Origin: Actinomycetales bacterium
Lineage (GTDB): Bacteria; Actinomycetota; Actinomycetes; Actinomycetales; Dermatophilaceae
Length of the DNA: 64,000 nucleotides
Assembly: GCA_038330415.1 (NCBI GenBank)
Contig: JBBQNZ010000001.1
Coordinates: 16,467-80,466 of the forward strand
Reading direction: 5' to 3'
Made by a program: the position numbers and the translations under genes
In this document: positions 7,134 through 57,306 of the stretch, piece by piece
Layout: every line of letters begins with the position of its first letter
How positions within the stretch are numbered: position 1 is the first letter of the stretch
The notes under the pieces: model-generated
Told to the model about the DNA's origin: nothing
Seen by the model: only the letters and a program-made list of their open reading frames with translations
Databases searched by the model: none

Positions 7134-8330
7134 ATGGGTGACATCGCCTCCCTCGGCGACCTGCGCGGCAAGCGCGTGCTCGTCCGCTCCGACCTCAACG
7201 TGCCGCTCGACGGAACGACGATCACGGACGACGGACGCATCCGGGCGTCGGTCCCGACCATCTCGAGCCTCGCCGAGGCGGGCGCACGCGTCATCGTGTG
7301 CGCCCACCTCGGCCGGCCCAAGGGCGCTCCGGAGGAGCGCTACTCGCTGGCCCCGCTCGTGAGCCGGCTCTCCGAGCTGCTCGGTCGCCCGGTCACCTTC
7401 GCCACCGACACGGTGGGCGAGAGTGCCCAGGCGGCCGTCGCGGGCATGTCCGACGGTGACGTCGTGCTGCTCGAGAACCTCCGCTTCAACCCCGGCGAGA
7501 CCGCCAAGCCCGACGACGAGCGCGCCGAGTTCGCCGACGCCCTCGCCGGCCTGGCCGACGCCTACGTCTCCGACGGCTTCGGCGTGGTGCACCGCAAGCA
7601 GGCATCGGTCTACGACGTCGCCACCCGGCTCCCGGCGGCGATGGGTGGCCTGGTCGCCACCGAGGTCGAGGTGCTCAAGCGCCTCACCGTCGACCCCGAG
7701 CGCCCGTACGCCGTGGTGCTCGGCGGCGCGAAGGTCGCCGACAAGCTGGCCGTCATCGACAACCTGATGCAGACCGCCGACCGCCTGCTCATCGGCGGGG
7801 GCATGCTCTTCACCTTCCTCGCGGCCCAGGGCCACGAGATCGGGAAGAGCCTGTTCGACGCCGAGAGCGTCGACGCCTGCAAGGACTACCTGCAGCGCGC
7901 GCAGGCCACCGGGGTCGAGATCGTGCTGCCCGTCGACATCGTGTGCGGCCGCGAGTTCTCCGCCGACACCGAGACCGTCACGGTCGCGGCCGACGCCATC
8001 CCCGCCGACATGATCGGCCTGGACATCGGCCCCAGGTCGGCGCAGCTCTACGCCGAGAAGCTCGCCGACACCCGCACCGTCTTCTGGAACGGCCCGATGG
8101 GCGCCTTCGAGATGGCGCCGTTCGCCGCGGGCACCCGCCGGCTGGCCGAGGCGCTCGTCGAGGTCACCGAGAAGGGCGCCCTGACCGTCGTCGGCGGCGG
8201 CGACTCTGCGGCCGCGGTGCGCCAGCTCGGCTTCCGCGACGACCAGTTCGGCCACATCTCCACCGGTGGCGGCGCATCGCTGGAGTACCTCGAGGGCAAG
8301 GAACTGCCCGGCATCGCCATCCTGTCCTGA
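7134..8330 (+). CDS. pgk: Phosphoglycerate kinase
   Basis: 398 aa. N-terminal [22 protein letters not shown] and GGGDSAAAV blocks typical of Pgk. gap-pgk-tpiA order. Confidence 0.97.
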
Positions 8331-8360
8331 CCCCGCACGACCGTTCACCAAGGAGCACCC

Positions 8361-9158
8361 ATGGCCTCCGGCCGCACCCCCCTCATGGCGGGGAACTGGA
8401 AGATGAACCTGGACCACCTCCAGGCCACCCACCTCGTGCAGAAGCTCGACTGGACCCTCAAGGACGGCAAGCACGACTTCGGTGCCGTCGAGGTGGCGGT
8501 GCTGCCGCCGTTCACCGACATCCGCAGCGTGCAGACGCTGATCGACGGTGACCGCCTCGAGCTCAAGCACGGCGCCCAGGACCTCTCCATGCACGACGCC
8601 GGCGCCTACACGGGCGAGATCAGCGGGGCCTTCCTCGCCAAGCTCGGCTGTGCCTACGTCACGGTCGGCCACAGCGAGCGGCGCGAGTACCACGCCGAGG
8701 GCGACGAGGTCGTCAACGCCAAGGTGCAGGCCGCCTTCCGGCACGGCATCACGCCGATCTTCTGCTGTGGCGAGGGCCTCGACATCCGTCAGGCCGGCAC
8801 CCACGTCGAGCACGTGCTCGCCCAGGTCGAGGCCGGTCTGAAGGACGTGCCCGTCGAGCAGGCCAGGAGCGTCGTCGTCGCCTACGAGCCGATCTGGGCC
8901 ATCGGCACCGGTGAGGTCGCCACGCCCGAGGACGCCCAGGAGGTGTGCGCCGCCATCCGCACCAAGCTCGCCGAGCTCTACAGCGGCGACGTCGCCGACG
9001 GCATCCGGGTGCTCTACGGCGGCTCGGTGAAGTCGGGCAACGTCGCGGCCATCATGGCCAAGGAGGACGTCGACGGTGCACTGGTCGGTGGGGCCTCGAT
9101 CGACCCGGTCGAGTTCGCCGCGATCTGCCGCTTCCGCGACCACCTGCAGACCTCCTGA
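8361..9158 (+). CDS. tpiA: Triosephosphate isomerase
   Basis: MAGNWKMN N-terminus, [18 protein letters not shown] catalytic loop. 265 aa. Confidence 0.97.
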
Positions 9159-9164
9159 CCCCGG

Positions 9165-9202
9165 CCGTTCGAGGTGCCTACCGCGGTCGGCACCTCGAAC
9201 GG
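9165..9202 (+). terminator. Perfect 14-bp stem hairpin after tpiA (terminator or attenuator before secG)
   Basis: CCGTTCGAGGTGCC, a 10-nt loop, then GGCACCTCGAACGG, followed by TTAT. It begins 7 nt after the tpiA stop. Confidence 0.45.
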
Positions 9203-9245
9203 TTATCCTTGAGCGGTTGCCCCCGACCCACCCGAAGGACTGCTC

Positions 9246-9488
9246 GTGCAAGCGGTACAAATCGGCCTTGAGATCCTCCTGGTCATCACCGGCCTGTTCC
9301 TGACCCTGCTGATCCTGTTGCACAAGGGCAAGGGCGGTGGCCTGTCCGACATGTTCGGTGGTGGCATGTCCAGCTCACTGGGTGGCAGCTCGGTCGCCGA
9401 GCGCAACCTCGACCGGATCACCGTCGGGGTCGCACTGGTGTGGTTCACGGTCGTCGTGGGCCTCGGCGTCCTTGCTCGCTTCGCCTGA
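9246..9488 (+). CDS. secG: Preprotein translocase subunit SecG
   Basis: 80 aa, two hydrophobic segments flanking the glycine-rich loop GKGGGLSDMFGGG. Conserved position after tpiA. Confidence 0.85.
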   Translation: MQAVQIGLEILLVITGLFLTLLILLHKGKGGGLSDMFGGGMSSSLGGSSVAERNLDRITVGVALVWFTVVVGLGVLARFA

Positions 9489-9503
9489 CAGGAATAGGTA
9501 GAC

Positions 9504-9854
9504 ATGGCTGGTGGTAACGCGATCCGTGGGTCGCGCGTCGGTGCGGGCCCGATGGGCGAGGCCGAGCGCGGCGAGGTGGCCCCCCGGGTGCACATCTCGT
9601 TCTGGTGCTCCAACGCGCACGAGACCAGGCCGAGCTTCTCCGAGGAGCCCGGCCTGGCCATCCCCGAGCAGTGGGACTGCCCGCGCTGCGGCCTCCCGGC
9701 CGGTCGCGACAGGGAGAACCCCCCGGCGGCGCCGCGGGTGGAGCCCTACAAGACCCACCTGGCCTACGTGAAGGAGCGCCGCTCCGACGAAGACGGCGAA
9801 GCCATCCTCGACGAGGCGCTGCAGACGCTGCGCGACCGCGGCCTGATCCAGTAG
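9504..9854 (+). CDS. rbpA: RNA polymerase-binding protein RbpA
   Basis: 116 aa. N-terminal GSRVGAG, zinc-ribbon-like residues (WCSNAHE ... CPRCG), and a C-terminal basic linker plus sigma-interaction helix (YKTHLAYVKERRS). Confidence 0.85.
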   Translation: MAGGNAIRGSRVGAGPMGEAERGEVAPRVHISFWCSNAHETRPSFSEEPGLAIPEQWDCPRCGLPAGRDRENPPAAPRVEPYKTHLAYVKERRSDEDGEAILDEALQTLRDRGLIQ

Positions 9855-9873
9855 ATCCGGCAGGACCGCGAGG

Positions 9874-10380
9874 TCAGCTGCGGCCGACCTGCCCGAGGTG
9901 GCCGACGACGCCGCTGATCCAGCCCCGCTCGCGCCCCAGCCAGCGGGTCGCCACCAGCATCCGGGTCACGACCGGCACGCTACGGCGTGGCGGCTCCACG
10001 GCCAGGTCGGTGCCGAACGGGTCGGTCGCCACGACCCACCGGTAGCCGCCGGCGGTGACCAGGTGGTCGCCGATCGCGGTGCCGAGCAGCTCGACGACCG
10101 TCGAGGAGTCCTCGTCGCCGTGGCTGTCCAGGGCGCGGTCGTAGGCGGCGGCGATGCTGTCGAGGTCGGCCGGGTCGATGCGGTGCGCGGCGTAGCCCGC
10201 GCGCACCGACTCCAGGGCCGCCTCCTCGTCGGCGGTGAGCCGGCGGATGCCGATCTCCTCGACCGCCTCGATGCCCTCGAGGCCGTCGCCGTCACCGGCG
10301 CCGCTCACGGCATCCGGGTCGTCGTCGGGCTGGGGGGAGGAGTCGTCGTCACGTCCGCGCAGCTTGTCGAGGAAGCCCAT
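9874..10380 (-). CDS. Hypothetical acidic protein (possibly DUF3806-like), last gene of the pentose-phosphate operon
   Basis: ATG at 10380 lies 5 nt downstream of the pgl stop. Product starts MGFLDKLRGRDDDSS, with an Asp/Gly-rich N-terminus and a globular C-terminal half. The upstream part of ORF 9874..10563 overlaps pgl and is not used. Confidence 0.55.
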   Translation of the reverse strand: MGFLDKLRGRDDDSSPQPDDDPDAVSGAGDGDGLEGIEAVEEIGIRRLTADEEAALESVRAGYAAHRIDPADLDSIAAAYDRALDSHGDEDSSTVVELLGTAIGDHLVTAGGYRWVVATDPFGTDLAVEPPRRSVPVVTRMLVATRWLGRERGWISGVVGHLGQVGRS

Positions 10381-10385
10381 CTCGC

Positions 10386-11123
10386 TCAGCGCTCCAGGTC
10401 GGCTGCGGCGTCGGTGTCGACGAGCCACAGGGTGCGATCCACGCCGTGCACGTGCGCGGCGGGGGTGGTTTCGAAGGGCGCGCCGGTGACCCCACGCCGC
10501 ACGGCGTCGGCCTTGTCGGCGCCGCTGACGAGGAACCACACCTCGCGCGAGCGCTCGAGGCACTCGCGGGTCAGCGACACCCGGGTCGGGGGCGGCTTGG
10601 GGGAGTCGTGCACGGCCACCGCGGGAGCGCCGACCTCCCGGGCCGTCGGGTGGTTGGGGAAGAGCGACGCGACGTGGCCGTCGGGCCCGACGCCGAGCAC
10701 CATCACGTCGAACAGGTCGGCGCCGGCGGCGTGCAGGGCGTCGCTGTAGGCCCGAGCGCTCTGCTCGGCGGACTCGCTCTGGTCGGGGCCGAGCACGCGG
10801 TGCACGTGGGCCGGGTCGAGGCCGAGGCCCGCGAGCCCGGCGGCGTCGTTCTGGGTGTCGTTGCGGTCGGCGTCGCCGGCCGGTAGCCAGCGCTCGTCAC
10901 CCCACCAGACGTGCACTTGCGACCAGTCGACGGCGTCGCGGGCCGGCACGGCACAGACCGACTCGATGAACCGCGAGCCCATCGAGCCGCCGGTCATCGA
11001 CACGTGGGCCACCCCGCGCGCCGACTGGGCGTCGACGACCGCCACGACCAGCCGGGCGGCAGCGGCATCGGCGAGGGCCTGCCGCCCCCGGTGCACCACC
11101 ACGGTGGCTGCGGTTTCGGTCAT
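10386..11123 (-). CDS. pgl: 6-phosphogluconolactonase
   Basis: Motifs SMTGGS, VWWGDERW and VLGVGPDGHVASLFP. ATGA overlap with the opcA stop. Confidence 0.9.
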   Translation of the reverse strand: MTETAATVVVHRGRQALADAAAARLVVAVVDAQSARGVAHVSMTGGSMGSRFIESVCAVPARDAVDWSQVHVWWGDERWLPAGDADRNDTQNDAAGLAGLGLDPAHVHRVLGPDQSESAEQSARAYSDALHAAGADLFDVMVLGVGPDGHVASLFPNHPTAREVGAPAVAVHDSPKPPPTRVSLTRECLERSREVWFLVSGADKADAVRRGVTGAPFETTPAAHVHGVDRTLWLVDTDAAADLER

Positions 11124-45725: not shown

Positions 45726-46541
45726 CTACTCGTCCTCCTCGTCCCAGATCCGGGTCTTCTTCGGCTTCGCGCGGTACTGCTCGGGGTTCTCCAGCCGCAG
45801 CTCGCGGCGGATGCCGAACGGGATCAGCACGAAGCCCATCACCATGAGCAGCCACCACTGGTACGCGTACGCCTGGTGCGGGCCGAGGTCGCGGTCGGGG
45901 TCGCCGAGCGCCTGCGGCCGTGGCGGCGAGGAGCCGTCGGGCAGCGTCTCGGACTGCAGCAGCACGTAGCCCGGCAGCACCGCGCCGTTGCCCAGGACGC
46001 CGGACGCGTCGCGCAGGTTGAGGCTGGCGATCTGGTTGTCGGGGAGCCGGCGGTTCCTCGACGCCTGGCCGGGGCGCACCCAGCCCACCACCTCCACCTC
46101 GCCGGAGGGCGCCGGGGCGACCTCGGGCAGCACGCTGGCCCCGCTCTCCGACTCGGCCACCCAGCCGCGGTCGACGATGACATCAGGGCCGCCGGTGCTC
46201 GGCCGGAAGGCCCACAGCACCTCGTAGCCGGGCTCGCTCTCGAGGGGTCGGTTGCGCACGAAGACCGGCCCACCGGCATACCGCCCGGAGACCGTCACCC
46301 GGGTCCACTCGTCCTTCGGGTCGAGCCCTGCCGGGGTGAGCACCGTCGACAACGGCACGGGTGCCGCCCGGTAGTGGGTGTCGAGGCGCTCGTTGCGCTG
46401 CTGCTTGGCCTCGAACCGGTGGTACTGCCACCAGCCGAGGTGGTAGCAGGTGAACGCCACCAGCCCCGCCAGGAGGAGGGCGCCCAGCCAGCGAGGTGTT
46501 ACGAGCCGCCTGAGCACGTAGCCACGGTACGCGACGTACAT
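45726..46541 (-). CDS. SURF1-family cytochrome oxidase assembly protein
   Basis: Two terminal TM segments flank a soluble domain. GWWQYHRF N-terminal motif. ATG 46541. The longer ORF is read-through. Confidence 0.8.
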   Translation of the reverse strand: MYVAYRGYVLRRLVTPRWLGALLLAGLVAFTCYHLGWWQYHRFEAKQQRNERLDTHYRAAPVPLSTVLTPAGLDPKDEWTRVTVSGRYAGGPVFVRNRPLESEPGYEVLWAFRPSTGGPDVIVDRGWVAESESGASVLPEVAPAPSGEVEVVGWVRPGQASRNRRLPDNQIASLNLRDASGVLGNGAVLPGYVLLQSETLPDGSSPPRPQALGDPDRDLGPHQAYAYQWWLLMVMGFVLIPFGIRRELRLENPEQYRAKPKKTRIWDEEDE

Positions 46542-46550
46542 TGGTCGCCT

Positions 46551-47552
46551 ATGACCGACCTTCCAGCCCCTCGCCTGCTCGACCGCTTCGGCCGCGCCGG
46601 CCGTGACCTTCGCGTGTCCGTCACCGACCGGTGCAACCTGCGCTGCAGCTACTGCATGCCGGCGGAGGGCCTGGACTGGCTGCCCAAGCCCGAGATGCTC
46701 ACCGACGACGAGCTGGTGCGGCTGGTCACCGTGATGGTCGGCCTCGGGGTCACCCAGGTGCGGCTGACCGGCGGCGAGCCACTGCTGCGCCGCAGCCTGG
46801 TCGACGTCGTCGGCCGCATCGCGGCCCTCGAGCCCCGGCCGCGCATCGCCATGACCACCAACGGCATCGGGCTCGACCGACTCGCCGCCCCCCTCGCCGC
46901 GGCAGGGCTCGACCGGGTCAACGTCAGCCTCGACACCATCGACCCCGAGCACTTCGGCCGGCTCACCCGGCGCGACCGCTTCAACGACGTGGTGGCCGGC
47001 CTCAAGGCCGCTGCCGAAGCCGGGCTCACCCCGGTGAAGGTCAACGCCGTGGCCATGCGCGGCGTCAACGACACCGACGTCCCCGACCTGTTGCAGTGGT
47101 GCCTCGACCGGGGCTACGACCTGCGCTTCATCGAGCAGATGCCGCTCGACGCGCAGCACGCCTGGGACCGCTCGCTGATGGTGTCGCAGGCCGAGATCCT
47201 GGAGCGGCTGGGGGAGCGCTTCGCGCTCACCCCGGTGCCCGACCGGGGCAGCGCCCCGGCCGAGCTGTTCTACGTCGACGGCGGGCCGGCCACCGTGGGC
47301 GTCATCGCCAGCGTGTCGGCGCCGTTCTGCGCCAGCTGCGACCGGGTGCGGCTCACGGCCGATGGTCAGCTGCGCAACTGCCTGTTCGCCCGCCGCGAGG
47401 TCGACCTGCGAGGCCCCATCCGGGCCGGCGCCACCGACACCGAGCTCGCCGACCTGGTCATCGCCGAGATGTGGGCCAAGAAGTCGGGCCACGGCATCGA
47501 GAAGGCCGGCTTCGAGCAGCCCGACCGCCCGATGTCAGCGATCGGTGGCTGA
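46551..47552 (+). CDS. moaA: GTP 3',8-cyclase (molybdenum cofactor biosynthesis)
   Basis: Radical SAM CNLRCSYC motif, GGEPLLR, and the C-terminal cluster CASCDRVRLTADG. Confidence 0.93.
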   Translation: MTDLPAPRLLDRFGRAGRDLRVSVTDRCNLRCSYCMPAEGLDWLPKPEMLTDDELVRLVTVMVGLGVTQVRLTGGEPLLRRSLVDVVGRIAALEPRPRIAMTTNGIGLDRLAAPLAAAGLDRVNVSLDTIDPEHFGRLTRRDRFNDVVAGLKAAAEAGLTPVKVNAVAMRGVNDTDVPDLLQWCLDRGYDLRFIEQMPLDAQHAWDRSLMVSQAEILERLGERFALTPVPDRGSAPAELFYVDGGPATVGVIASVSAPFCASCDRVRLTADGQLRNCLFARREVDLRGPIRAGATDTELADLVIAEMWAKKSGHGIEKAGFEQPDRPMSAIGG

Positions 47553-47915: not shown

Positions 47916-48647
<732 letters not shown>

Positions 48648-48719: not shown

Positions 48720-49478
48720 ATGTTGCTCGAGGGCAAGAAGCTGCTCGTCACCGGCGTCCTCATGGACTCCTCGATCGCCTTCCACGTCGCCAGGTTCGCC
48801 CAGGAGCAGGGCGCCGAGGTGGTGCTCACGTCCTTCGGGCGCACCATGAAGATCACCTCCGCGATCGCCAAGCGGCTGCCGCAGACCCCGCCGGTCGTCG
48901 AGCTCGACGTCACCAACGACGACGACCTCGGCGCGCTGGCCGACCGGGTGCGCGAGCACCTGCCGCACCTCGACGGCGTGGTGCACTCGATCGGCTTCGC
49001 GCCGCAGGGAGCCTTCAACTTCATGGAGGCCGGCTGGGACGACGTGTCCACCGCGGTGCACGTCTCGGCCTACTCGCTCGCCTCGCTCACCAAGGCCGCC
49101 CTGCCACTGATGGGCCCGGGCGGCAGCGTCGTCGGCCTCACCTTCGACGCCCGGTTCGCCTGGCCGGTCTACGACTGGATGGGGGTGGCCAAGGCCGCGT
49201 TCGAGTCGACCAACCGCTACCTCGCCCGCGACCTCGGCCCGATGGGCATCCGCTCCAACATCGTGGCCGCCGGCCCGATCCGCACCACCGCGGCCAAGTC
49301 GATCCCCGGCTTCGAGCGGTTCGAGGAGGAGTGGGGCAGCCGCTCACCACTCGGCTGGGACGTCAACGACGCGGAGCCCGCTGCCAAGGCCTGCATCGCC
49401 CTGCTGTCCGACTGGTTCCCCGCCACGACCGGCGAGATGGTGCACGTCGACGGCGGCTTCCACGCGATGGGCGTCTGA
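48720..49478 (+). CDS. inhA: NADH-dependent enoyl-ACP reductase
   Basis: Collinear with mycobacterial InhA strings (SSIAFHVARFAQEQGAEVVLT, GVVHSIGFAPQ, YDWMGVAKAA, LLSDWFPATTGEMVHVDGG). Confidence 0.92.
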   Translation: MLLEGKKLLVTGVLMDSSIAFHVARFAQEQGAEVVLTSFGRTMKITSAIAKRLPQTPPVVELDVTNDDDLGALADRVREHLPHLDGVVHSIGFAPQGAFNFMEAGWDDVSTAVHVSAYSLASLTKAALPLMGPGGSVVGLTFDARFAWPVYDWMGVAKAAFESTNRYLARDLGPMGIRSNIVAAGPIRTTAAKSIPGFERFEEEWGSRSPLGWDVNDAEPAAKACIALLSDWFPATTGEMVHVDGGFHAMGV

Positions 49479-49537: not shown

Positions 49538-51760
49538 GTGAGCAGCGAGCCCGCCCAGACCCGCGAGACGACACCCCAGCCCGGCGTCACCACCCGCGAG
49601 GTGCGCCTGCTCGAGGGTCCGAACCTCTACTTCCCCCGCCCGGCCGTCAAGGTGACCCTCGCCCTGCCCGGCTACCTCGACGCCCCGGACGACGCTCTGC
49701 GCGCGATCAAGACCGCCGCCGGTCTGCGCCGCGGCCAGACCGGCGCCCCGGGCTCCGAGCAGCGCCAGCAGGTGCTGCTGCGCCTGGTCGAGCGGGTGGC
49801 CCGCTCGCTGGCGGCCGAGGTCGGCACCCGACGGCTGGGCGTGCGCACCCGGGCGGCCAACGAGACCGACGTCGTGGTCTGCGCTTTCGTGTGGCGGCAC
49901 CGGGCCCGGGCCGAGACCCTGGGTACCGCGATCGGCCTGGTGCTCGGCGACCTGCTCGACGGCCATGCCTTCCCGGATGCCGTGGCGTACCGCGCCGCGG
50001 CGGTCGCGGCCGCCACGGCGCCGGGTGACGGGCCCCGGCTGGTGACGCCCCGCATCCCGGTCGCCTCCGTGACGGGCACCAACGGCAAGACCACCACGAC
50101 CCGTCTGTTGGCCCACATCTGCATGACCGCCGGGTTCACCACCGGCTGGAGCTCCACCGACGGGGTCGTCGTCCAGGGTGAGGTCATCGAGCCGGGCGAC
50201 TACTCCGGCCCGGCCGGGGCACGCGCCGTGCTCGAGGCGCCCGGGGTGCAGATCGGCATCCTCGAGACGGCCCGCGGCGGGATGCTGCTGCGCGGCATGG
50301 GCGTCACCCACAACGACGTCTCGGTGGTCACCAACGTGTCGGCCGACCACCTGGGCATGCAGGGCATCGACACCGTCGACCAGCTCGCGGAGGTCAAGGC
50401 CATCGTCACCAGGGTGACCCGGCCGCACGGCTGGGTGGTGCTCAACGGCGAGGACCCGCGGGTCTGGGCGATGCGCACCGGCATCCGGGCCCGTCCGTGG
50501 GTCTTCACCGCAGACGCCGGGGCGCCGGCCGTGCGCGAGGCCCTGGGTGCCGGGGGCCGGGCGCTGACCGTCCTCGACGACCACCTCACCGTGCTGCGAC
50601 CCGACGCTGCACCCGACCGGCTCGTGCGCGTCGTCGACCTTCCGATGGCGCTGTCCGGCTTGTCGCACCACAACGTGCTCAACGCCCTGGCGGGCGCGGC
50701 GGCGGCGCTCGGGCTCGGCATCGACCGCGATGCCGTCGTCGAGGGGCTGCGCACCTTCCGCCCCGACGACGTGCTCAACCCGGGCCGGATGAACACCTAC
50801 ACGGTGCCGATCGAGGGCGGAGACGCCACCGTGGTGGTCGACCTCGCGCACAACGAGGCCGGGCTCGAGGCGCTGCTCGACGTGGCCCGTGGCCTCGTGG
50901 CGCCGGGGGGCCGGGTGCACCTGGCCCTGGGCACGGCCGGTGACCGCACCGACGAGATCCTGCGGGCACTCGGCGAGATCGCCGGCCTGCGCGCCGACCA
51001 CGTCGTGGCGGCGCACAAGGCGCAGTACCTGCGCGGGCGCACCGTCGAGGAGCTCGAGGCGCAGCTACGCATCGGGCTCGCCCACGCGGGCGTGGGTGAC
51101 GTCGCGTCCTACCCCACAGAGCTGTCGGGCCTACAGGCGCTGGTGGATGCCGCCGACGATGGTGACGTGGTGGCCGTCATGTGCCACGCCGAGCGGGTCG
51201 AGATCCTCGACTGGCTGCATTCGCGCAGCGCCACGTCCGACGACCCCGACGCGATCCGCCGCAAGGTGGTGCGCGCCCGCGGCGAGCACGACTGCGAGGA
51301 CGAGATCGCGGCGCTGTGGGAGCTGCCGGATGCCGCGGCGCGCGTCGCCACTGCCGCCGCCCTCTACGCCGCACACCCCGGTGACGCCCGGATCGCGTAC
51401 GAGTACGCCGGCACCCACGACAGCGCCGGTGCCGAGGCGGCCGCCGTGGCGCTCTACGAGGAGGCCCTCGCCGCCGGCCTGCGTGAGCCTCACCGGCACC
51501 GCGCCCAGGTGCAGCTGGCGTCGAGCCTGCGCAACGTCGGCCGGGTCGAGGAGGCGGTGGCCGTCATCGATGACGTGGCGGCACGGCATCCGGACAGCCT
51601 GGGCGTCGCGGCCTTCCGCGCGCTGGTGCACCACGACGCGGGTGCTCCGACCCGAGCCCTGGCCGAGCTGCTCTCCGCGATCGCGTCGACGAGCACCGAC
51701 CCGGATGTCGTCCGCTACCGCCGGGCCCTCACCGCCTACGCCGCCGAGCTGTCCGACTGA
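49538..51760 (+). CDS. Cyanophycin-synthetase-like protein lacking the ATP-grasp domain: CphA N-domain plus Mur-ligase-like M domain plus C-terminal TPR_5-like domain
   Basis: 740 aa. The N-terminus aligns by eye with the CphA N domain encoded at 53547..56393 (REVRLLEGPNLY vs ESRVYRGGNIW; VVVCAFVWRHRARAETLGTAIGLV vs YNVIYSYTNEEVALAAGRLAVRLV). It then runs directly into VTGTNGKTTTTR, ARGGMLLRG, TNVSADHLGMQGIDTVDQLAEVKAIV and DLAHNEAG. The last ~130 aa resemble TPR_5 proteins (ALYEEALAAGL...QVQLASSLRNVGR...VRYRRALTAYAAEL). Confidence 0.8.
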   Translation: MSSEPAQTRETTPQPGVTTREVRLLEGPNLYFPRPAVKVTLALPGYLDAPDDALRAIKTAAGLRRGQTGAPGSEQRQQVLLRLVERVARSLAAEVGTRRLGVRTRAANETDVVVCAFVWRHRARAETLGTAIGLVLGDLLDGHAFPDAVAYRAAAVAAATAPGDGPRLVTPRIPVASVTGTNGKTTTTRLLAHICMTAGFTTGWSSTDGVVVQGEVIEPGDYSGPAGARAVLEAPGVQIGILETARGGMLLRGMGVTHNDVSVVTNVSADHLGMQGIDTVDQLAEVKAIVTRVTRPHGWVVLNGEDPRVWAMRTGIRARPWVFTADAGAPAVREALGAGGRALTVLDDHLTVLRPDAAPDRLVRVVDLPMALSGLSHHNVLNALAGAAAALGLGIDRDAVVEGLRTFRPDDVLNPGRMNTYTVPIEGGDATVVVDLAHNEAGLEALLDVARGLVAPGGRVHLALGTAGDRTDEILRALGEIAGLRADHVVAAHKAQYLRGRTVEELEAQLRIGLAHAGVGDVASYPTELSGLQALVDAADDGDVVAVMCHAERVEILDWLHSRSATSDDPDAIRRKVVRARGEHDCEDEIAALWELPDAAARVATAAALYAAHPGDARIAYEYAGTHDSAGAEAAAVALYEEALAAGLREPHRHRAQVQLASSLRNVGRVEEAVAVIDDVAARHPDSLGVAAFRALVHHDAGAPTRALAELLSAIASTSTDPDVVRYRRALTAYAAELSD

Positions 51761-51787: not shown

Positions 51788-53491
51788 TCAGTTGACGGCC
51801 GGCGGCTCCGTTCCCGGCCGAGGGGCGAACCGGTGCAGCATCTCGTCCACGTGCGCCGAGGTCGCGGCGCTACCGCGCGGTGATCCAGTCATCAGGGCCA
51901 GGAACCGGTCGGCCCGCAGCGACTCCAGTCGCAGGTCCTCGACGGCCCGGACAGTCGCCGTGCGGGGGACCTGGCGCAGGAGAGCGATCTCGCCGAAGGA
52001 CTCGCCGGGGCCCAGCCGGGTGATCGGCTCGCCGTCGCCGACGACCTCCGCCGTGCCCGCGACCACGACGTAGAACCGGTCGCCGGCATCACCCTGCCGG
52101 AAGACCGTCTCCCCGGCCGGCACGAGCACGTGGTCGAGCTGTCGGGCGACGGTCTCGAGGGCGGGTAGGGGCAGCGCGTCGAGCAGGGGGACTCCCCGTA
52201 GGAGGGCCAGCTCCTCGTCGCGCCCGACGATGACGGCGTCCAGGGCGGCGAGCCGGCGCCAGGAGAGCGCGACGGCGACGGGCGTGAGCAACCCCAGCAC
52301 GACCAGGCTCGTGCGCAGGTCGAGGACGTTGATGGCGACCGGGGTCAGCAACGCGCCCAGGCCAACGCAGACGGCCACGACGCTCTCCAGCAGGCCGAAG
52401 ACGCGGGCGAGCACGTTGGCGGGGGAGATGCGGGCGAGAACGGTGAAGCCCCCGACGTCGATGAGGGCGTTGCCGGCGCCGACGGCCGCGAGCATGACCA
52501 TCGCCGACGCCGCTGACGGGAACAGCCCGATAACGACCAGGGGCGCACCCCACAGGGCTGCGCCGAGCCCGAACCAGGCCGCCAGGTGGCGCGATCCCAC
52601 GAGGAGCGCAGCGGCCGCGGAGGCGAGCACCGCCCCGGCGCCGAGGGCGGCGTTCAGCACCCCCACACCGGGGTACCCGAGATCCACGAGCTCGATCGCG
52701 ACGACCACGGCGAGGACCGTGATCGCCCCCCGCATGAACGTCTGCGCCCCGATGAGCGCGATCAGGAGTCGCAGGTCGCGGTTGGCGTGCACGGCACGCA
52801 CCCCGCCGAGGGTGCGGTCGAGCGGGCCGTCGTCATCGGGCTCACCGGCGTCGAGCGGAGTCGGTTCGGGATGGACGCGCGCCATCAGCCAGCCGGCCCA
52901 CGCCGATGCCACGGCGGCCATGGCGAGCACCTGGGCCGCGCCGCCCGATGCGAGCAGCACCGCGCTGATCGCGGGTCCGGCCAGCGTCGCCGCCGAGTCC
53001 AGGGCCCCGCGAACGACGTTGGCCCCCGCGAGCTCGGTCGGCGTCACGCACAACGACGGCAGGAGCGCGGAGTGGACCGGACGGAAGAGCACGGCGGCGG
53101 CCGACGACACCGTCACGAGCGCGTACACCGTCACCGCGGGACCGTCCGCGAACACCGCCCAGCCGGCGAGGGCGATGGACACGGCGCGGACGACCGAGAC
53201 GGCGACGAGCACCTGGTCCCGAGGCCACCGGTCGGCGTACTGGGTGGCCAGCGGGGCCACCACGGCAGCGGGGAGCACCCGGACGAGGGCCACGACACCC
53301 ACCTCCGTGGCGCCGCCGCGGCCGTAGGCGTAGACGGCGAGGACGACGGTGACGGCCCACTCGGCGGTCCAGGCGCCGAAGAATGCCGCCTGTGCTCGCC
53401 GCAGGCCCGGGTTGCGCCAGTTCGTCGCGAAGGCGCCCGCAGCCGCGCGCAGGCGAGACGGCCGCAGGCGTCCGGAGGCCTTCGACGCCAT
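51788..53491 (-). CDS. MFS transporter fused to a C-terminal cyclic-nucleotide-binding domain
   Basis: About 12 TM segments, then a CAP-family effector domain (FRQGDAGDRFYVVVAG...GESFGEIALLRQVPRTATVRA). Lies 55 nt downstream of cphA on the same strand. Confidence 0.85.
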   Translation of the reverse strand: MASKASGRLRPSRLRAAAGAFATNWRNPGLRRAQAAFFGAWTAEWAVTVVLAVYAYGRGGATEVGVVALVRVLPAAVVAPLATQYADRWPRDQVLVAVSVVRAVSIALAGWAVFADGPAVTVYALVTVSSAAAVLFRPVHSALLPSLCVTPTELAGANVVRGALDSAATLAGPAISAVLLASGGAAQVLAMAAVASAWAGWLMARVHPEPTPLDAGEPDDDGPLDRTLGGVRAVHANRDLRLLIALIGAQTFMRGAITVLAVVVAIELVDLGYPGVGVLNAALGAGAVLASAAAALLVGSRHLAAWFGLGAALWGAPLVVIGLFPSAASAMVMLAAVGAGNALIDVGGFTVLARISPANVLARVFGLLESVVAVCVGLGALLTPVAINVLDLRTSLVVLGLLTPVAVALSWRRLAALDAVIVGRDEELALLRGVPLLDALPLPALETVARQLDHVLVPAGETVFRQGDAGDRFYVVVAGTAEVVGDGEPITRLGPGESFGEIALLRQVPRTATVRAVEDLRLESLRADRFLALMTGSPRGSAATSAHVDEMLHRFAPRPGTEPPAVN

Positions 53492-53546: not shown

Positions 53547-56393
53547 TCAGCCGGTGGGCGGCGCAGGCTCGATGTCGCGGGCGGCGGTGTCGCCGGCCTC
53601 GCGGGCCTCCTCCTGCATCGTCTCGGAGTCGAGGTCGGGGTCGCCGACGCCGTCGCGGTTGTGGCTGCCGGGCTGCGCCTGCTGGGTCATCGACTCGAGC
53701 TCGGACATCACCGCCGCGTGCTGGTCGACACTCATGACGACGATGTCACCCGGGTTGGCACGGGCCATCACGTGCCGCACCGCCTCCGACTCGTCGAGCA
53801 CGACCTCGACCTGGCGGCAGCGAACCCCGGGCTCGCCGACCCGGCTGCGGGCGCCCTCGGCGACCGCGGCCGCGGTGAACCCTCGCTCCCGACCTCGCAG
53901 CCGCTGGTCCTCGCGCACCACCACCACGTCGAAGTGCTCCGCCGCGACGGCACCGAGCTCGCGCATGTCCTCCTCGCGCCGGTCCCCGGCGGTGGCGATC
54001 ATGCCGATCCGCGAGATCTTGCCGAGGTCGGTCTGCCCGGCCTTCATCGCGGCGTACCGCTCGACGAAGTCGCCGAGCACCCGCATGCCGGGGGCGTTGT
54101 GGCAGTAGTCGACGATCACGTCGACGTTGTGCACGTTGATCTGGTTCATCCGGCCGGGGGAGAGGTAGTACGAGGTCGTGAAGGTGCGCAGGCCCTGCCG
54201 GATCTCGTGCAGCCCCGCACCGCTGGCGAACGCCGCGCCCGCGGCCGCCATCGCGTTGGCCACGTTGAACAGCGCCGTGCCGCCGAAGGACGAGGGCAGC
54301 AGGTGGGTCCACGCCAGCTGCATCGAGCGGCGCCCGTGCCGGATGACGATCATGTCGCCGCGGTCGGTGCGGTCGAGCACCACCGCCCGGCCGCCGTTGC
54401 GGCAGTGGTTGTCGATGAATTCGCGCACCTTGCTTCCCGGCTCCTCGAGGCTGAACCAGACGACCGAACCCGAGCAGCGCCGCCGCATCCGCCGCACCAG
54501 GGCGTCGTCGGCGTTGAGCACCGCGAACCCGTCGCGCGGCACCGCCTCGACGACGACGGCCTTGACGTCGGCGAGCTGCTCGAGGGTGTCGATGCCGCGC
54601 ATGCCCAGGTGGTCGGGCGCGACGTTCGTCACCACAGCGACGTCGTTGCGGTCGTAGCCCAGCCCCTCGCGCAGGATGCCGCCGCGCGCCACCTCCATCA
54701 CGGCGAAGTCGACGCGCGGGTTCTGCAGCACCATCCGCGCCGAGCGCGGCCCGGAGGCGTCGGACTTCACGACCAGCCGCTCGTCGATGACGATGCCGTC
54801 GGTCGAGGTCATGCCGACCTGGCGGCCGACGCCCTTCATGATGTGCGCGATCATCCGCGAGGTCGTCGTCTTGCCGTTGGTGCCGGTCACGGCGACGATC
54901 GGCACCCGCGACGGTGCCCCGGGCGGGAAGAGCAGGTCGACCACCGGCTTGGCGATGTACTGCGGCTCGCCGATGGTCGGGTGCGTGTGCATCCGAAAGC
55001 CCGGTGCCGCGTTGACCTCGCAGATCGCGCCGCCGGCCTCGCGCACCGGCGAGGCGATGTCCGGGCAGATGAAGTCGATGCCCGCCACGTCGAGCCCGAT
55101 CAGCCGGGCCGCCTCCTCGGCGATCTCGACGTTGTCGGGGTGGGCGTCGAAGGTGCGGTCGATGGAGATGCCACCGGTGGACATGTTGCCGGTCAGGGCC
55201 AGCTTGACCATGGTGTCGAGCGGCGGCACGTCGTCCAGGGTGAGGCCCTGCTCGCGCAGCAGCTCCAGCGCCGCCGCGTCGACCTTGATCTTGGTGAGCA
55301 CCTTCTCGTGGCCCACCCCGCGGCGCGGGTCGGCGTTGGTCAGCTCGACGAGCTCGCCCACGGTGTGCGTGCCGTCGCCGGTGACGTGCGCGGGCACCCG
55401 CTCGGCGATGGCCTGCATCCGGCCCCCGACGATGAGGCAGCGGTAGTCGCGGCCGGTCACCATCGACTCGACGATGACGTAGCCGCCGCGCGACTGGTCC
55501 TCGGCCACCGCGAACGCCTCGAGGACCTCTGCGTCGCTGTCCAGGTTCAGGCACACCCCACGACCGTGGTTGCCGTCGAGCGGCTTGACGACCACCGGGA
55601 AGCCGATCCGGCGGGCGGCGGCGACCGCACCCTCGGCCGAGCGCACCGTCTCCTGCTTGGGCACCGGCAGCCCGGCCGAGCCGAGCAGCTTGGTGGTCAT
55701 GTCCTTGTCGCCGGCGATGTCGACGGCCAGCGCGCCGGTCTTCGACGTCATCGTGGCGCGGATCCGCTGCTGGTGCACGCCCTGCCCGAGTTGCACCAGG
55801 CTGCCGCTGTTGAGCCGGATGAAGGGGATGTCGCGGCTGACCGCCTCCTCCAGGATCGCCCCGGTCGACGGGCCGAACGCGGTGCGCTCGGCCCGGGTCA
55901 GGAAGGTCTCGAGCTCGGCGCCGAAGTCGAACTCCGGGTCCTCCTGGACCAGGTGGTTGACCAGGCGCACCGCGAGGCGGCCGGCCGCCAGGGCGACCTC
56001 CTCGTTGGTGTAGCTGTAGATGACGTTGTAGACGCCGGGGCTGCCCTTGACCATGCGGGTCTTCCCGCGGCGCTGGTCGTGACCGGCCTCCTGCTGCAGC
56101 TGCAGGGCGACGTGCTCGGCGACGTGCCCGACCCAGGTGCCGTCGCGCAGGCGCTCGATGAAGCCGCCCTTGACCCCCTTGGAGCAGGTGTGGTTCTCGA
56201 GCCCGGGCAGCAGCTCGACGAGCCGGTCGGTGAAGCCGGGGAGGGTGTCGGTCGGATATCCCTCGAGCACACCGAGGTCGACCACGAGGTGGATGGACGG
56301 GTTGTAGGACCAGATGTTGCCACCGCGGTAGACGCGCGACTCGACGATGCGCAGGTCGGGGGCGGCGGGGCCGGTCGGGCTGGGACGGTCCAT
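53547..56393 (-). CDS. cphA: Cyanophycin synthetase
   Basis: 948 aa from ATG 56393. N domain, ATP-grasp G domain (GFPVVVKPLDGNHGRGV, EVNAAPGFRMH) and Mur-ligase-like M domain (VTGTNGKTTTSR, TNVAPDHLGMRGID, DYCHNAPG). Acidic C-terminal tail. Confidence 0.93.
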   Translation of the reverse strand: MDRPSPTGPAAPDLRIVESRVYRGGNIWSYNPSIHLVVDLGVLEGYPTDTLPGFTDRLVELLPGLENHTCSKGVKGGFIERLRDGTWVGHVAEHVALQLQQEAGHDQRRGKTRMVKGSPGVYNVIYSYTNEEVALAAGRLAVRLVNHLVQEDPEFDFGAELETFLTRAERTAFGPSTGAILEEAVSRDIPFIRLNSGSLVQLGQGVHQQRIRATMTSKTGALAVDIAGDKDMTTKLLGSAGLPVPKQETVRSAEGAVAAARRIGFPVVVKPLDGNHGRGVCLNLDSDAEVLEAFAVAEDQSRGGYVIVESMVTGRDYRCLIVGGRMQAIAERVPAHVTGDGTHTVGELVELTNADPRRGVGHEKVLTKIKVDAAALELLREQGLTLDDVPPLDTMVKLALTGNMSTGGISIDRTFDAHPDNVEIAEEAARLIGLDVAGIDFICPDIASPVREAGGAICEVNAAPGFRMHTHPTIGEPQYIAKPVVDLLFPPGAPSRVPIVAVTGTNGKTTTSRMIAHIMKGVGRQVGMTSTDGIVIDERLVVKSDASGPRSARMVLQNPRVDFAVMEVARGGILREGLGYDRNDVAVVTNVAPDHLGMRGIDTLEQLADVKAVVVEAVPRDGFAVLNADDALVRRMRRRCSGSVVWFSLEEPGSKVREFIDNHCRNGGRAVVLDRTDRGDMIVIRHGRRSMQLAWTHLLPSSFGGTALFNVANAMAAAGAAFASGAGLHEIRQGLRTFTTSYYLSPGRMNQINVHNVDVIVDYCHNAPGMRVLGDFVERYAAMKAGQTDLGKISRIGMIATAGDRREEDMRELGAVAAEHFDVVVVREDQRLRGRERGFTAAAVAEGARSRVGEPGVRCRQVEVVLDESEAVRHVMARANPGDIVVMSVDQHAAVMSELESMTQQAQPGSHNRDGVGDPDLDSETMQEEAREAGDTAARDIEPAPPTG

Positions 56394-56448: not shown

Positions 56449-57306
56449 TCAGGCCTTGGCCGAGGCGACCGAGGCGAGCAGGTCGGGGTGCTGCTCGACG
56501 AAAGCGGTGAGCCGCCGCTCCCGCAGGTCGAAGGTCGCCCCGGCGGGCAGGGTGTGCACCGTCGCCCCCGACACGAGCACGGGGGCACCGGCGCGGGCGT
56601 CCGGGGCGTCGGTGACGGCGGTCGTGCAGTCGACGACGAACACCGCACCGGAGCCACGCACGGTGAACTCGCGGCCGTCGGTCACCACCATGGCCGTGTC
56701 CTCGTCGATCCCGATGCCGAGCAGGTGCGGCGACGGGGCGATCACGGACATCAGGCGACCGTAGCGCGACCGCTGGTCGAAGTGCTGGTCCACGACCACT
56801 CCCCGGACCAGGCCGAGGCCCGCGGAGATCTGGCTGGCGCGCTGGCGCGGCGTGATGCCCTCGTCACCCATCGAGATCATGAAGTCGCTCATGATCGAGG
56901 CGCCGGCCGAGGTGCCTCCGATGACGGTGCCGCGGTCGTGCGCCCGGTGCAGCGCCTCGCCGAGCGGGGTGCCCGGGAGCAGCTGCGAGAGCCGCAGCTG
57001 GCTGCCGCCGCTCATGAAGACGCCGGTGGCGTCGTCGACCAGCGCCACGAGCTCGGGGTCGTGCGAGTCCTGCCGGGTCGCTGGGTTGACCACCGACACG
57101 CCGGGAGCGCCGAGCCGGGTGAACACCTCGGTGTAGGAGTTGACCACCTCGTCCTGGAAGGACGAGGCCGTGGGGACCAGCACCAGCCTGGCGCGGCGGC
57201 CGCCGGACAGCTTGACGAACTGGCGCAGGAGCGAGGACCGGCCGACCCGGTCCTCCGCCCCACCGATGATGAAGAGCGTGGGCGTGGTCGAGGGGTAGCG
57301 CGGCAC
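56449..57306 (-). CDS. cphB: Cyanophycinase (peptidase S51)
   Basis: 285 aa. LFIIGGAED, FMSGGSQ, and the catalytic serine context GGTSAGASIM. GTG start 4 nt after the serB stop. Confidence 0.88.
   Translation of the reverse strand: MPRYPSTTPTLFIIGGAEDRVGRSSLLRQFVKLSGGRRARLVLVPTASSFQDEVVNSYTEVFTRLGAPGVSVVNPATRQDSHDPELVALVDDATGVFMSGGSQLRLSQLLPGTPLGEALHRAHDRGTVIGGTSAGASIMSDFMISMGDEGITPRQRASQISAGLGLVRGVVVDQHFDQRSRYGRLMSVIAPSPHLLGIGIDEDTAMVVTDGREFTVRGSGAVFVVDCTTAVTDAPDARAGAPVLVSGATVHTLPAGATFDLRERRLTAFVEQHPDLLASVASAKA

Follow-up and report, generated by a model that had tools for sequence, protein, structure and literature searches.

Genes at the cyanophycin locus

The DNA analyzed here (hereafter, the window) is a 64,000-nucleotide stretch of the contig JBBQNZ010000001.1 (positions 16,467 to 80,466 of the forward strand, assembly GCA_038330415.1) from an actinobacterium of the family Dermatophilaceae. 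It encodes a typical cyanophycin synthetase, CphA1, composed of the N, ATP-grasp (G), and Mur ligase-like (M) domains, and, 1.8 kb away from it, a second CphA-like protein (hereafter, the target) that has no G domain and is the subject of this work. Reading along the window, genes for an ABC transporter and MoaA are followed by two small genes, the fabG-fabI pair, and the target gene on the plus strand, after which come on the minus strand the genes for a transporter of the major facilitator superfamily (MFS) fused to a cyclic nucleotide (cNMP)-binding domain, CphA1, and the cyanophycinase CphB, then by serB, a luciferase-like gene, and glgC; the next gene is glgA. The coordinates are listed in Table 1. 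The G+C content at the third codon positions (GC3) of the target gene is 0.94; in a genome with a 72% GC content, this is a signature of genuine genes, so the target is considered a real gene.

Table 1. Coordinates of the principal features in the window (nt, nucleotides; aa, amino acids; TPR, tetratricopeptide repeat)
Feature	Coordinates	Strand	Basis or description
fabG	47934-48647	+	Pfam; co-directional with the target gene, upstream of it
fabI/inhA-like gene	48720-49478	+	Pfam; 59-nt gap before the target gene
Target gene, G-less CphA paralog	49538..51760	+	N - Mcore - Mlid - TPR_5; 740 aa; GTG start
Diverged CphA-type N domain, residues ~17-160	49586..50017	+	Profile search of PDB, hhalign, AlphaFold2 (AF2) and Foldseek
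Mcore, residues ~171-410, Mur_ligase_M	50048..50767	+	Pfam; alignment to SuCphA1; TeCphA1 residue roles (PMC9427784)
ATP-binding P-loop VTGTNGKTTT, residues 178-187	50069..50098	+	Sequence; identical in the window CphA1
Mlid, residues ~411-565, Mur_ligase_C	50768..51232	+	Pfam; TeCphA1 R731/H748 mapped onto the target
Predicted incoming-substrate pocket, residues 468-501	50939..51040	+	Group-specific conservation; alignment to E. coli MurE 1e8c
TPR_5 helical-repeat domain, residues 619-738	51392..51751	+	Pfam TPR_5; PDB 3k9i
MFS transporter fused to C-terminal cyclic-nucleotide-binding domain	51788..53491	-	Pfam
CphA1, N-G-M, 948 aa	53547..56393	-	TIGR02068 1148 bits vs cutoff 850, full length; Pfam Cyanophycin_syn, ATP-grasp, Mur
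Cyanophycinase CphB, Peptidase_S51	56449..57306	-	Pfam, E 1.2e-26

Domain architecture of the target

Pfam searches with the target sequence returned Mur_ligase_M (residues 178-390, E = 1.4e-16) and Mur_ligase_C (residues 416-548, E = 2e-11), both above the gathering thresholds, followed by TPR_5, and no ATP-grasp or RimK family down to E<=1. The NCBIfam model of cyanophycin synthetase, TIGR02068, aligned only with residues 171-550 (model positions 477-849) and scored 341.3 bits against the cutoff of 850, short of the full-length match that this equivalog calls for. In BLASTP, residues 172-501 matched residues 496-835 of the window CphA1 (41% identity, 141/346; E = 6e-56), so that the target from position 172 on lines up with CphA1 from position 496 on. 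The motifs VTGTNGKTTT, ARGG(M/I)L, TNV..DHLGM.GIDT..QLA.VKA.V, and D..HN..G, by which the first-pass annotation, made from the sequence alone, had recognized a complete M domain, are found in both proteins. The closest sequences in PDB are five CphA1 entries (E values from 1e-62 to 1e-58), which match through the M domain only.

The AF2 model of the full-length protein (predicted local distance difference test [pLDDT] score of 91.4; predicted template modeling [pTM] score of 0.82) has the N domain stopping at about residue 160 and the M domain beginning at about residue 171. When compared with CphA1 chains in Foldseek, this model aligns over ~880 columns from N through M (E ~1e-30; query-based template modeling score [TMq] of 0.61-0.63), with the G domain appearing as a gap and the TPR tail lacking a counterpart. 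The target is a complete CphA-type M domain that comes directly after a diverged CphA-type N domain, without an ATP-grasp domain. The absence of the G domain, the TPR_5-type C terminus, and the overall Pfam outcome all agree with what had been proposed in the first-pass annotation.

N domain

The N region of the target starts with the hallmark of its family, E21-x-R23-x-L25-x-G27-P28-N29...P35-A36-x-K38. Its collinearity with the CphA N domain, suggested at first pass, is weak in pairwise BLAST against the window CphA1 (E = 1.1) but is upheld by more sensitive methods. The Pfam entry PF18921 gave no match in the N regions of the target and nine relatives, so the assignment of this domain makes use of profiles and folds. 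A profile built from 23 N regions of the family retrieved from PDB the CphA1 structures 7lgn (residues 10-135, E = 1.6e-5) and 7lgm (E = 2.5e-3). With hhalign, the family profile and the N domain of the window CphA1 were collinear over 149 columns (probability 80%, E = 1.5e-5). An AF2 model of residues 1-171 (pLDDT 91.0, pTM 0.84) was submitted to Foldseek against PDB, and the top 15 matches were all N domains of CphA1 or CphA2, the latter including the entries 8fxi and 7ta5 (probability 0.97-1.0, TMq up to 0.61); the next match had a probability of 0.33, which is noise. According to these models, the N-terminal 170 amino acids have the CphA N fold and not the fold of the UDP-MurNAc-binding domain 1 of Mur ligases, and the N region of the target is a diverged CphA N domain, predicted to pack onto the M domain in a manner similar to that in CphA1.

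In primer-independent CphA1 enzymes, the N domain carries a metallopeptidase site with the signature Cx19HxxEH (PMC9262961). This site is intact in the window CphA1 (C70-x19-H90-x-x-E93-H94), as is its M domain. In the target, the hhalign alignment places R82-L-V-E85-R86 (RLVER) at the HxxEH position, with the loop that bears the metal-binding Cys deleted, and the alignment of family N regions contains no conserved His or Cys. The N domain of the target is thus catalytically degenerate and dead as a peptidase.

Catalytic residues of the M domain

The residues of the M domain that are responsible for ATP binding, Mg coordination, and catalysis have been established in TeCphA1 (PMC9427784) and were transferred to the target through an alignment to SuCphA1. 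Asn497, Lys499, Thr500, Thr522, and Glu558 of TeCphA1 (N497, K499, T500, T522, and E558) correspond to N182, K184, T185, T207, and E243, and R731, H748, and A755 correspond to R417, H438, and A445. The sole departure is the adenine-stacking F692 of TeCphA1, which is H378 in the target. The Mcore signature comprises G180-T-N-G-K184-T185, T207, E243 within ETARGG, N266, D270-H271, and K287, so that His271 of the DHxG motif and Lys287 are conserved as well. In Mlid, R417 and H438-N439 are the predicted ATP contacts, and G468-D469-R470 is also conserved.

This catalytic set is invariant, or nearly so, in relatives down to ~35% identity. It includes the features that define the Mur ligase superfamily, namely, the P-loop, the Mg-binding Glu, the His of DHxG, the Lys that follows it, and the C-terminal Arg and His-Asn, and the Foldseek comparison of the model with MurE gave an E value of ~1e-16. 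The target family further keeps the CphA-specific signatures GD..GP, ETARGG, and RGR, which are absent from other Mur ligases. With the full ATP/Mg/catalytic set present and invariant in the family, the target looks like an active ligase rather than a pseudoenzyme. The loss of catalytic residues, against which the first-pass annotation had cautioned, was not seen, and the M domain is apparently catalytically competent.

The loss of the peptidase site from the N domain and a TPR tail suggestive of protein-protein contacts could also be accommodated if the target were a noncatalytic protein that regulates CphA1 or cyanophycin granules or serves them as a scaffold, its N and M domains binding the polymer and its TPR domain binding a protein. 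This appears highly implausible: although the family has diverged to ~35-40% identity, its ATP, Mg, and catalytic residues have stayed invariant, and most of its members have no TPR tail.

Family of G-less CphA-like proteins

In a database search with the target, the first 120 matches are full-length N-M-TPR orthologs with 63-94% identity, all from Dermatophilaceae (Ornithinibacter, Fodinibacter, Oryzobacter, Nostocoides, Knoellia, Phycicoccus, and other genera), and are annotated as either "tetratricopeptide repeat protein" or "cyanophycin synthetase." An exhaustive search of representatives of clusters at 50% identity yielded 1207 proteins at E<=1e-30. Many of these, 540-590 amino acids long, match residues ~20-580 of the query at 40-52% identity and represent the N-M architecture without the TPR tail, and another group of ~570 amino acids matches the M part only. 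The family was defined by an N domain of ~170 amino acids that starts with E-x-R-x-L-x-G-P-N...P-A-x-K and is directly followed by a CphA-type M domain containing GD(Y/F/W)(S/T)GPxGA and xYLRGR; the target has GDYSGPAGA at positions 220-228 and QYLRGR at positions 496-501.

In a neighbor-joining tree of 117 M domains (with bootstrap on 70 taxa), all G-less M domains were separated from all sampled CphA1 M domains with a bootstrap value of 86/100. They fall into two clans: clan A (bootstrap 83/100), which includes the target and other members from Actinomycetota, Chloroflexota, and a metagenome-assembled genome (MAG) labelled as Clostridia, and clan B (97/100) with members from Gammaproteobacteria, Myxococcota, and Acidobacteriota. 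The N region of clan B aligned with the clan A N profile in the first strand only (28 columns, probability 40%), which supports no more than a shared start motif for clan B. The M domain of the target shows no special affinity to the CphA1 encoded beside it, which indicates that the N-M architecture is old and did not arise by a recent deletion of the G domain from a duplicated cphA1. Judging from this tree, the G-less N-M proteins are an old, widespread family, separate from CphA1. The initial description of the target as a CphA paralog with the ATP-grasp domain "cleanly missing" therefore holds with respect to the absence of the G domain but not in the sense of a CphA copy from which this domain has been removed.

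For the same reasons, a decaying or recently truncated duplicate of the neighboring cphA1, whether a pseudogene or an annotation artifact, can be considered refuted. The sole support for it comes from the proximity of cphA1 and the 41% identity of the M domains, whereas full-length orthologs exist in many genera, GC3 is high, the AF2 model is confident, and the M domain belongs to a separate clan.

Neither Pfam nor NCBIfam has a dedicated model for either clan of the G-less family, and only the M part of TIGR02068 matches its members. No published description of a G-less CphA-like protein was found in the searched literature, which did not extend to subscription-only articles, in agreement with the impression at first pass that this architecture does not correspond to a characterized enzyme; the name CphA3 led only to an Aeromonas beta-lactamase. 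One clan B protein, P0220 (757 amino acids), carries in its N region an insertion of ~190 amino acids that, by eye, resembles a DUF559/Vsr-like endonuclease (…RYVLDFYC…LAIELDGGQH…).

Linkage to cphA1 and cphB in other genomes

Loci of the G-less genes (numbered L001 and on) were sampled at one genome per GTDB species, and all counts below are among the matches listed. Their flanks were surveyed by tblastn with the N, G, and M domains, CphB, and other neighbors, and diverse representatives were examined in addition. A cphA1 gene is found no farther than 8 kb from the G-less gene, nearly always accompanied by cphB, in at least 22 of ~28 informative loci; at least 15 of the linked loci belong to clan A and at least 7 to clan B. 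These linked loci come from at least 5 phylum-level lineages, Actinomycetota, Chloroflexota, Gammaproteobacteria, Myxococcota, and Acidobacteriota.

The clan A loci with cphA1 within 8 kb are the window, L001, L003, L004, L005, L007, L008, L009, L010, L013, L014, L018, L083, L084, and L091, with L014, L018, and L084 being from Chloroflexota or unassigned to a taxon. All of them have cphB beside cphA1, except for L008, the flank of which ends inside cphA1. Nostocoides (L001) and Knoellia (L091) have the gene order of the window without the MFS gene, so that the target homolog and cphA1 are convergent and only 30-37 nt apart. The fabG-fabI pair precedes the G-less gene in L001, L003-L008, L010, L013, and L091, as it does in the window, but not in L009; in L083, the genes form the tandem cphB-x-cphA1-Gless with a 26-nt gap. 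In clan B, the G-less gene directly adjoins cphA1 in L015 (Luteimonas), L023, L027, L041 (Plesiocystis), L057, L075 (Acidobacteriota), and L087, with cphB present in each of them except L087; L078, which is truncated at the end of its contig, is probably one more. In L087, the tandem is cphA1-Gless-iadA, which places the G-less gene between cphA1 and the isoaspartyl dipeptidase gene. Thus, there are at least five arrangements: convergent, the two tandem ones, and those with and without fabG-fabI upstream. Recurrence of the adjacency in five phyla and in at least five arrangements would be hard to explain without a functional link of the G-less gene to cphA1 and cphB.

The CphA1 enzymes encoded next to the G-less genes keep all M-domain residues that are conserved in CphA1. 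The possibility that these partners have dead M domains was accordingly rejected, and the G-less enzyme is not a substitute for one. The genes found between the target homolog and cphA1 in L004, L007, L008, and L010 were also considered and turned out to be unrelated insertions (Dyp peroxidase, PCuAC, glycosidase, and an ABC sugar system).

The protein P0138 (972 amino acids; L092, positions 8001-10919), encoded in a MAG of a Gram-negative bacterium, is a fusion of a CphA1-type M domain (GDRRDED, KQDDELRGR) with a G-less-type N'-M' unit (GPAG, PQYLRG). Its gene is directly followed by cphB and a gene of the Asparaginase_2 (IaaA-type) family, and no G domain is encoded within 8 kb of it. The presence of both M types in a single polypeptide suggests that they do different jobs in one pathway. 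As an observation in its own right, P0138 may represent a cyanophycin-related ligase system that operates without a G domain. The view, put forward at first pass, that a stand-alone N+M enzyme would be unable to produce the polymer by itself is a reasonable presumption.

Some of these loci have additional peculiarities. An M20 peptidase gene is found beside the G-less gene in four loci that are dissimilar in other respects, L002 (4175-5320), L018 (~8667-9671), L083 (13098-14264), and L084 (4098-5336), but not in the window. The best NCBIfam match of these peptidases, below the cutoff, is the glutamate carboxypeptidase (CPG2-like) subfamily, and their recurrence is a weak lead hinting at a removable C-terminal residue. 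In L087 (2274-6774), cphA1 is called as two genes, for N+G (477 amino acids) and M (451 amino acids), overlapping by 4 nt, and the isoaspartyl dipeptidase gene is split as well; these splits may be genuine or may be frameshifts in a metagenome contig. In L013 (10483-16579), an Actinomycetota MAG, the frames of the G-less gene, cphA1, and cphB are all broken in tblastn, owing to either indel errors in long reads or decay of the locus.

Substrate pocket of the M domain

To characterize the predicted pocket, M domains of 25 clan A, 13 clan B, and 78 CphA1 proteins were compared (CphA1 residues are given in the numbering of the window protein). The nearly invariant Ser551 of CphA1 (S551, 94%) is replaced by Gly, Gly227 in the target, in 100% of the members of both G-less clans, and both have, in distinction from CphA1, a conserved aromatic residue at position 222. 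Arg806 in the GDRR motif (R806, 93%) gives way to Thr, Ala, Pro, or Ser in both clans (T471 in the target), and Phe821 (F821, 88%) gives way to Ala or Pro. The Asp residue of the KED motif (80% in CphA1) is lost in the G-less clans (K494 in the target), whereas Asp809 (D809, 92%) is lost in clan A only (I474). The CphA1 pattern (R/K)(E/Q)D-x-x-LRGR becomes x-x-x-x-Y-LRGR with a one-residue insertion, and its Tyr, Tyr497 in the target, is present in 100% of the clan A and 76% of the clan B sequences. As a result, the pocket reads GDR-T471-D-E-I474 ... H493-K494-A-Q-Y497-L-R-G-R501 in the target versus GDRR806..D809 and (R/K)(E/Q)D-x-x-LRGR in CphA1.

In the HMMER alignment with E. coli MurE, residues 340-411 of 1e8c correspond to residues 416-492 of the target. 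A gap-free extension of this alignment puts the DNPR motif of MurE (residues 413-416), which recognizes diaminopimelate, on K494-A-Q-Y497, with Y497 falling on Arg416. The segments in which the G-less proteins depart from CphA1 would then be the ones that choose the incoming amino acid in Mur ligases. Given the loss from this pocket of residues that hardly vary in CphA1 and the gain of others typical of the G-less family, the enzyme probably does not repeat the arginine addition catalyzed by CphA1. Among the options listed in the first-pass annotation, a different amino acid or another specificity is therefore favored over simple repair with arginine.

Such repair would make the target a trans-acting Arg (or Lys) ligase that uses the chemistry of the CphA1 M domain and completes or repairs undecorated Asp residues left by CphA1 or by partial degradation. 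The catalytic set and the GD..GP, ETARGG, and RGR signatures that it has in common with CphA1 M domains, the preserved N/Mcore unit, and the linkage to cphA1-cphB are all in line with this role. It nevertheless appears rather unlikely: R806, D809, the KED Asp, and S551 are all replaced, Y497, G227, and the aromatic residue at 222 have been kept across two old clans, and the intact M domains of the partner CphA1s, along with the coexistence of both M types in P0138, argue against redundancy.

Predicted function

In CphA1, Mcore touches the N domain of the same chain, and an Asp-terminated cyanophycin analogue lies between that domain and Mcore (PMC9427784). It is precisely this unit that the N-M protein has retained. 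The most probable role of the target, to which we assign a likelihood of roughly 60%, is that of a catalytically competent N-M paralog working as a stand-alone ligase, which would use ATP, take cyanophycin or pieces of it as the substrate, and differ in specificity from the arginine addition by CphA1. In such an enzyme, the groove between N and Mcore would bind cyanophycin or a cyanophycin fragment, and the M site would use ATP-Mg to phosphorylate a carboxylate of the bound substrate, to which an amine would then be ligated. Candidate reactions include attachment of some other amino acid to the side chains of Asp or to the alpha-carboxylates of Arg, which would turn cyanophycin into a modified polymer; capping or priming at the ends of chains; and Mur-type religation of beta-Asp-Arg units, analogous to the reaction of CphA2.

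A more specific proposal, a cyanophycin-related ligation not described so far that adds either a third monomer or a cap or else joins the backbone or dipeptides in the Mur fashion, is tentative. If a third monomer or a cap is added, many noncyanobacterial "cyanophycins" would differ chemically from the textbook Asp-Arg polymer. If the backbone or dipeptides are ligated in the Mur fashion, P0138-like proteins (M + N' + M') would be ATP-grasp-independent cyanophycin synthetases.

Several observations weigh against a cyanophycin-directed ligase of new specificity. The tree is distance-based and has no outgroup, and the pocket argument is based on MurE homology and conservation patterns. In Actinomycetota, the G-less gene and cphA1-cphB converge, whereas fabG-fabI have the same direction as the G-less gene, so that its linkage there could be inherited synteny. 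A sub-branch in Thermomicrobiales/Chloroflexia has the gene order ParB - Rce1-like CPBP protease - Gless - MoaA (L012, L086, L088, and L090), with no cphA1 within 10 kb of these genes where the flank exists, and none was found in L089 either; in L002, cphA1 is absent within 8 kb upstream and 2 kb downstream.

The same Thermomicrobiales sub-branch, with its conserved Rce1-like protease and MoaA neighbors and no cphA1, would fit a Mur-type ligase whose carboxylate substrate has nothing to do with cyanophycin (for example, a peptide of the cell envelope or one linked to a cofactor), the proximity of cphA being a historical accident. So would the MoaA gene ~2 kb upstream in the actinobacterial loci and the position of the gene there after fabG-fabI, convergent with cphA1. 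This explanation is quite improbable, given the adjacency to cphA1/cphB in five phyla and in varied layouts, which include tight operon-like tandems and a position between cphA1 and iadA. Furthermore, L014, which has the same N-terminal type as the Thermomicrobiales sub-branch, nonetheless adjoins cphA1-cphB, and in the Foldseek searches the fold of the N domain was otherwise found only in CphA1 and CphA2.

Comparison with known systems

CphA1 (TIGR02068; PDB 7LG5, 7WAC, 7LGM, 7LGN) makes multi-L-arginyl-poly-L-aspartate from Asp, Arg, and ATP. Like the target, it has the N fold at the N terminus, followed by Mcore and Mlid with the identical P-loop and the same Mg/ATP ligands and signature motifs (~41% identity of the M domains), and the N and M domains of the two proteins are positioned compatibly in Foldseek. 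It differs from the target in having the G domain of ~325 amino acids, by which the Asp backbone is extended, and the Cx19HxxEH site, whereas the replacements of S551, R806, D809, the KED Asp, and F821, Tyr497 with its one-residue insertion, and the TPR_5 tail are on the side of the target. CphA2 (PDB 7TA5, 8FXH) is likewise a reduced CphA paralog with a noncatalytic N domain that coexists with CphA1, but it is a mirror image of the target: its G domain is the only active site and its M domain is truncated and inactive (PMC10273328), while the target has a complete M and no G. This is the opposite arrangement that the first-pass annotation had given for CphA2. Mur ligases, such as MurE (PDB 1E8C, 2WTZ), and pseudomurein ligases have the same folds of the central ATP-binding and the C-terminal domains and the same acyl-phosphate chemistry; in the target, the CphA N domain takes the place of the UDP-MurNAc-binding domain, and K-A-Q-Y that of DNPR. 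By these features, the target is neither CphA1 nor CphA2 and is classified in the Mur ligase superfamily as a protein that carries a CphA N domain.

A second cphA-like gene beside cphA is also found in the CphA/CphA' tandems of beta-proteobacteria (Cupriavidus, Acidovorax, Nitrosomonas). In contrast to the G-less family, both genes of these tandems keep the G domain, and there is no cphB in the flank (L037, L046, L048, L051, L056, L066, L071). These tandems are a family different from the G-less N-M proteins. The CphA/CphA' genes have been reported to co-fit with an ABC exporter and DUF1854 (bioRxiv 10.1101/072470), and the retention of both G domains and the lack of cphB in their loci agree with the suggestion in the literature of a different, possibly exported, polymer.

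Implications

Cyanophycin metabolism, as it is now described, involves CphA1, CphA2, cyanophycinases, and isoaspartyl dipeptidases. If the prediction made here is true, a third class of CphA-type enzymes, encoded beside cphA1/cphB in at least 5 phyla, would represent a step missing from this scheme, the candidates for which are modification of the polymer, capping or priming of its chains, and recycling of its fragments. Cyanophycin is being developed for practical use, both as a biopolymer and in the recovery of nitrogen. The Dermatophilaceae include wastewater organisms of the Tetrasphaera/Phosphoribacter type, in which cyanophycin has been proposed as a storage compound (PMC9123174). Proteins of the G-less family are currently labelled "tetratricopeptide repeat protein," "Mur ligase family protein," or, wrongly, "cyanophycin synthetase," and thousands of annotations would be set right by a model built for this family.

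TPR tail

The C-terminal 120 amino acids of the target match practically the whole TPR_5 model (PF12688, positions 3-119 of 119) with 100.8 bits versus the gathering threshold of 24.2 (E = 7.8e-29), and the tail also matches the structure of BH0479 (PDB 3K9I, E = 1e-9). Typical members of the TPR_5 family are stand-alone proteins of ~120 amino acids, whereas here the domain is fused to a ligase. This tail is confined to the Dermatophilaceae-type members of the family and is absent from the relatives of ~540-590 amino acids. Its most likely role is to dock the enzyme to some partner protein. A downstream 292-amino acid protein in Kribbella was considered as a detached TPR tail and rejected (hhalign probability of 0.2%).

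Actinobacterial CphA1 proteins (window, 53547-53700 on the minus strand; L001, L003-L005, L007-L010) have an acidic C-terminal tail of ~45 amino acids with the motif AQ(A/P)G...GDPD(L/F). Cyanobacterial CphA1s lack the acidic tail, and those of the proteobacterial partners end in DERGVR(I/L)AREE.D. Docking of the TPR domain at this CphA1 tail is unsupported because the GDPD(L/F) end is common to taxa with and without the TPR; the presence of the acidic-tail motif is uncorrelated with that of the TPR tail.

Other features of the gene neighborhood

A scan of the high-GC target region for promoters and terminators found nothing, and the Rfam and tRNA scans of the window were empty. The MFS/cNMP gene, which separates the target gene from cphA1 in the window, is missing from this position in Nostocoides and Knoellia; it may have been inserted here, or it may encode a transporter under cNMP control that was recruited to the cyanophycin locus. 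The open reading frame (ORF) of cphA1, as called mechanically, is overextended: it reads 1036 amino acids from a GTG codon at 56657 and overlaps the end of cphB, whereas homology favors the start at 56393. The MoaA gene is located ~2 kb upstream of the G-less gene in the actinobacterial loci, including the window (45876-47552, plus strand), and its proximity to the G-less gene in the Thermomicrobiales/Chloroflexia sub-branch as well makes this a co-location across phyla. The ORF at these coordinates reads 558 amino acids, with the radical-SAM domain starting at residue ~247, while its relatives are 336-348 amino acids long.

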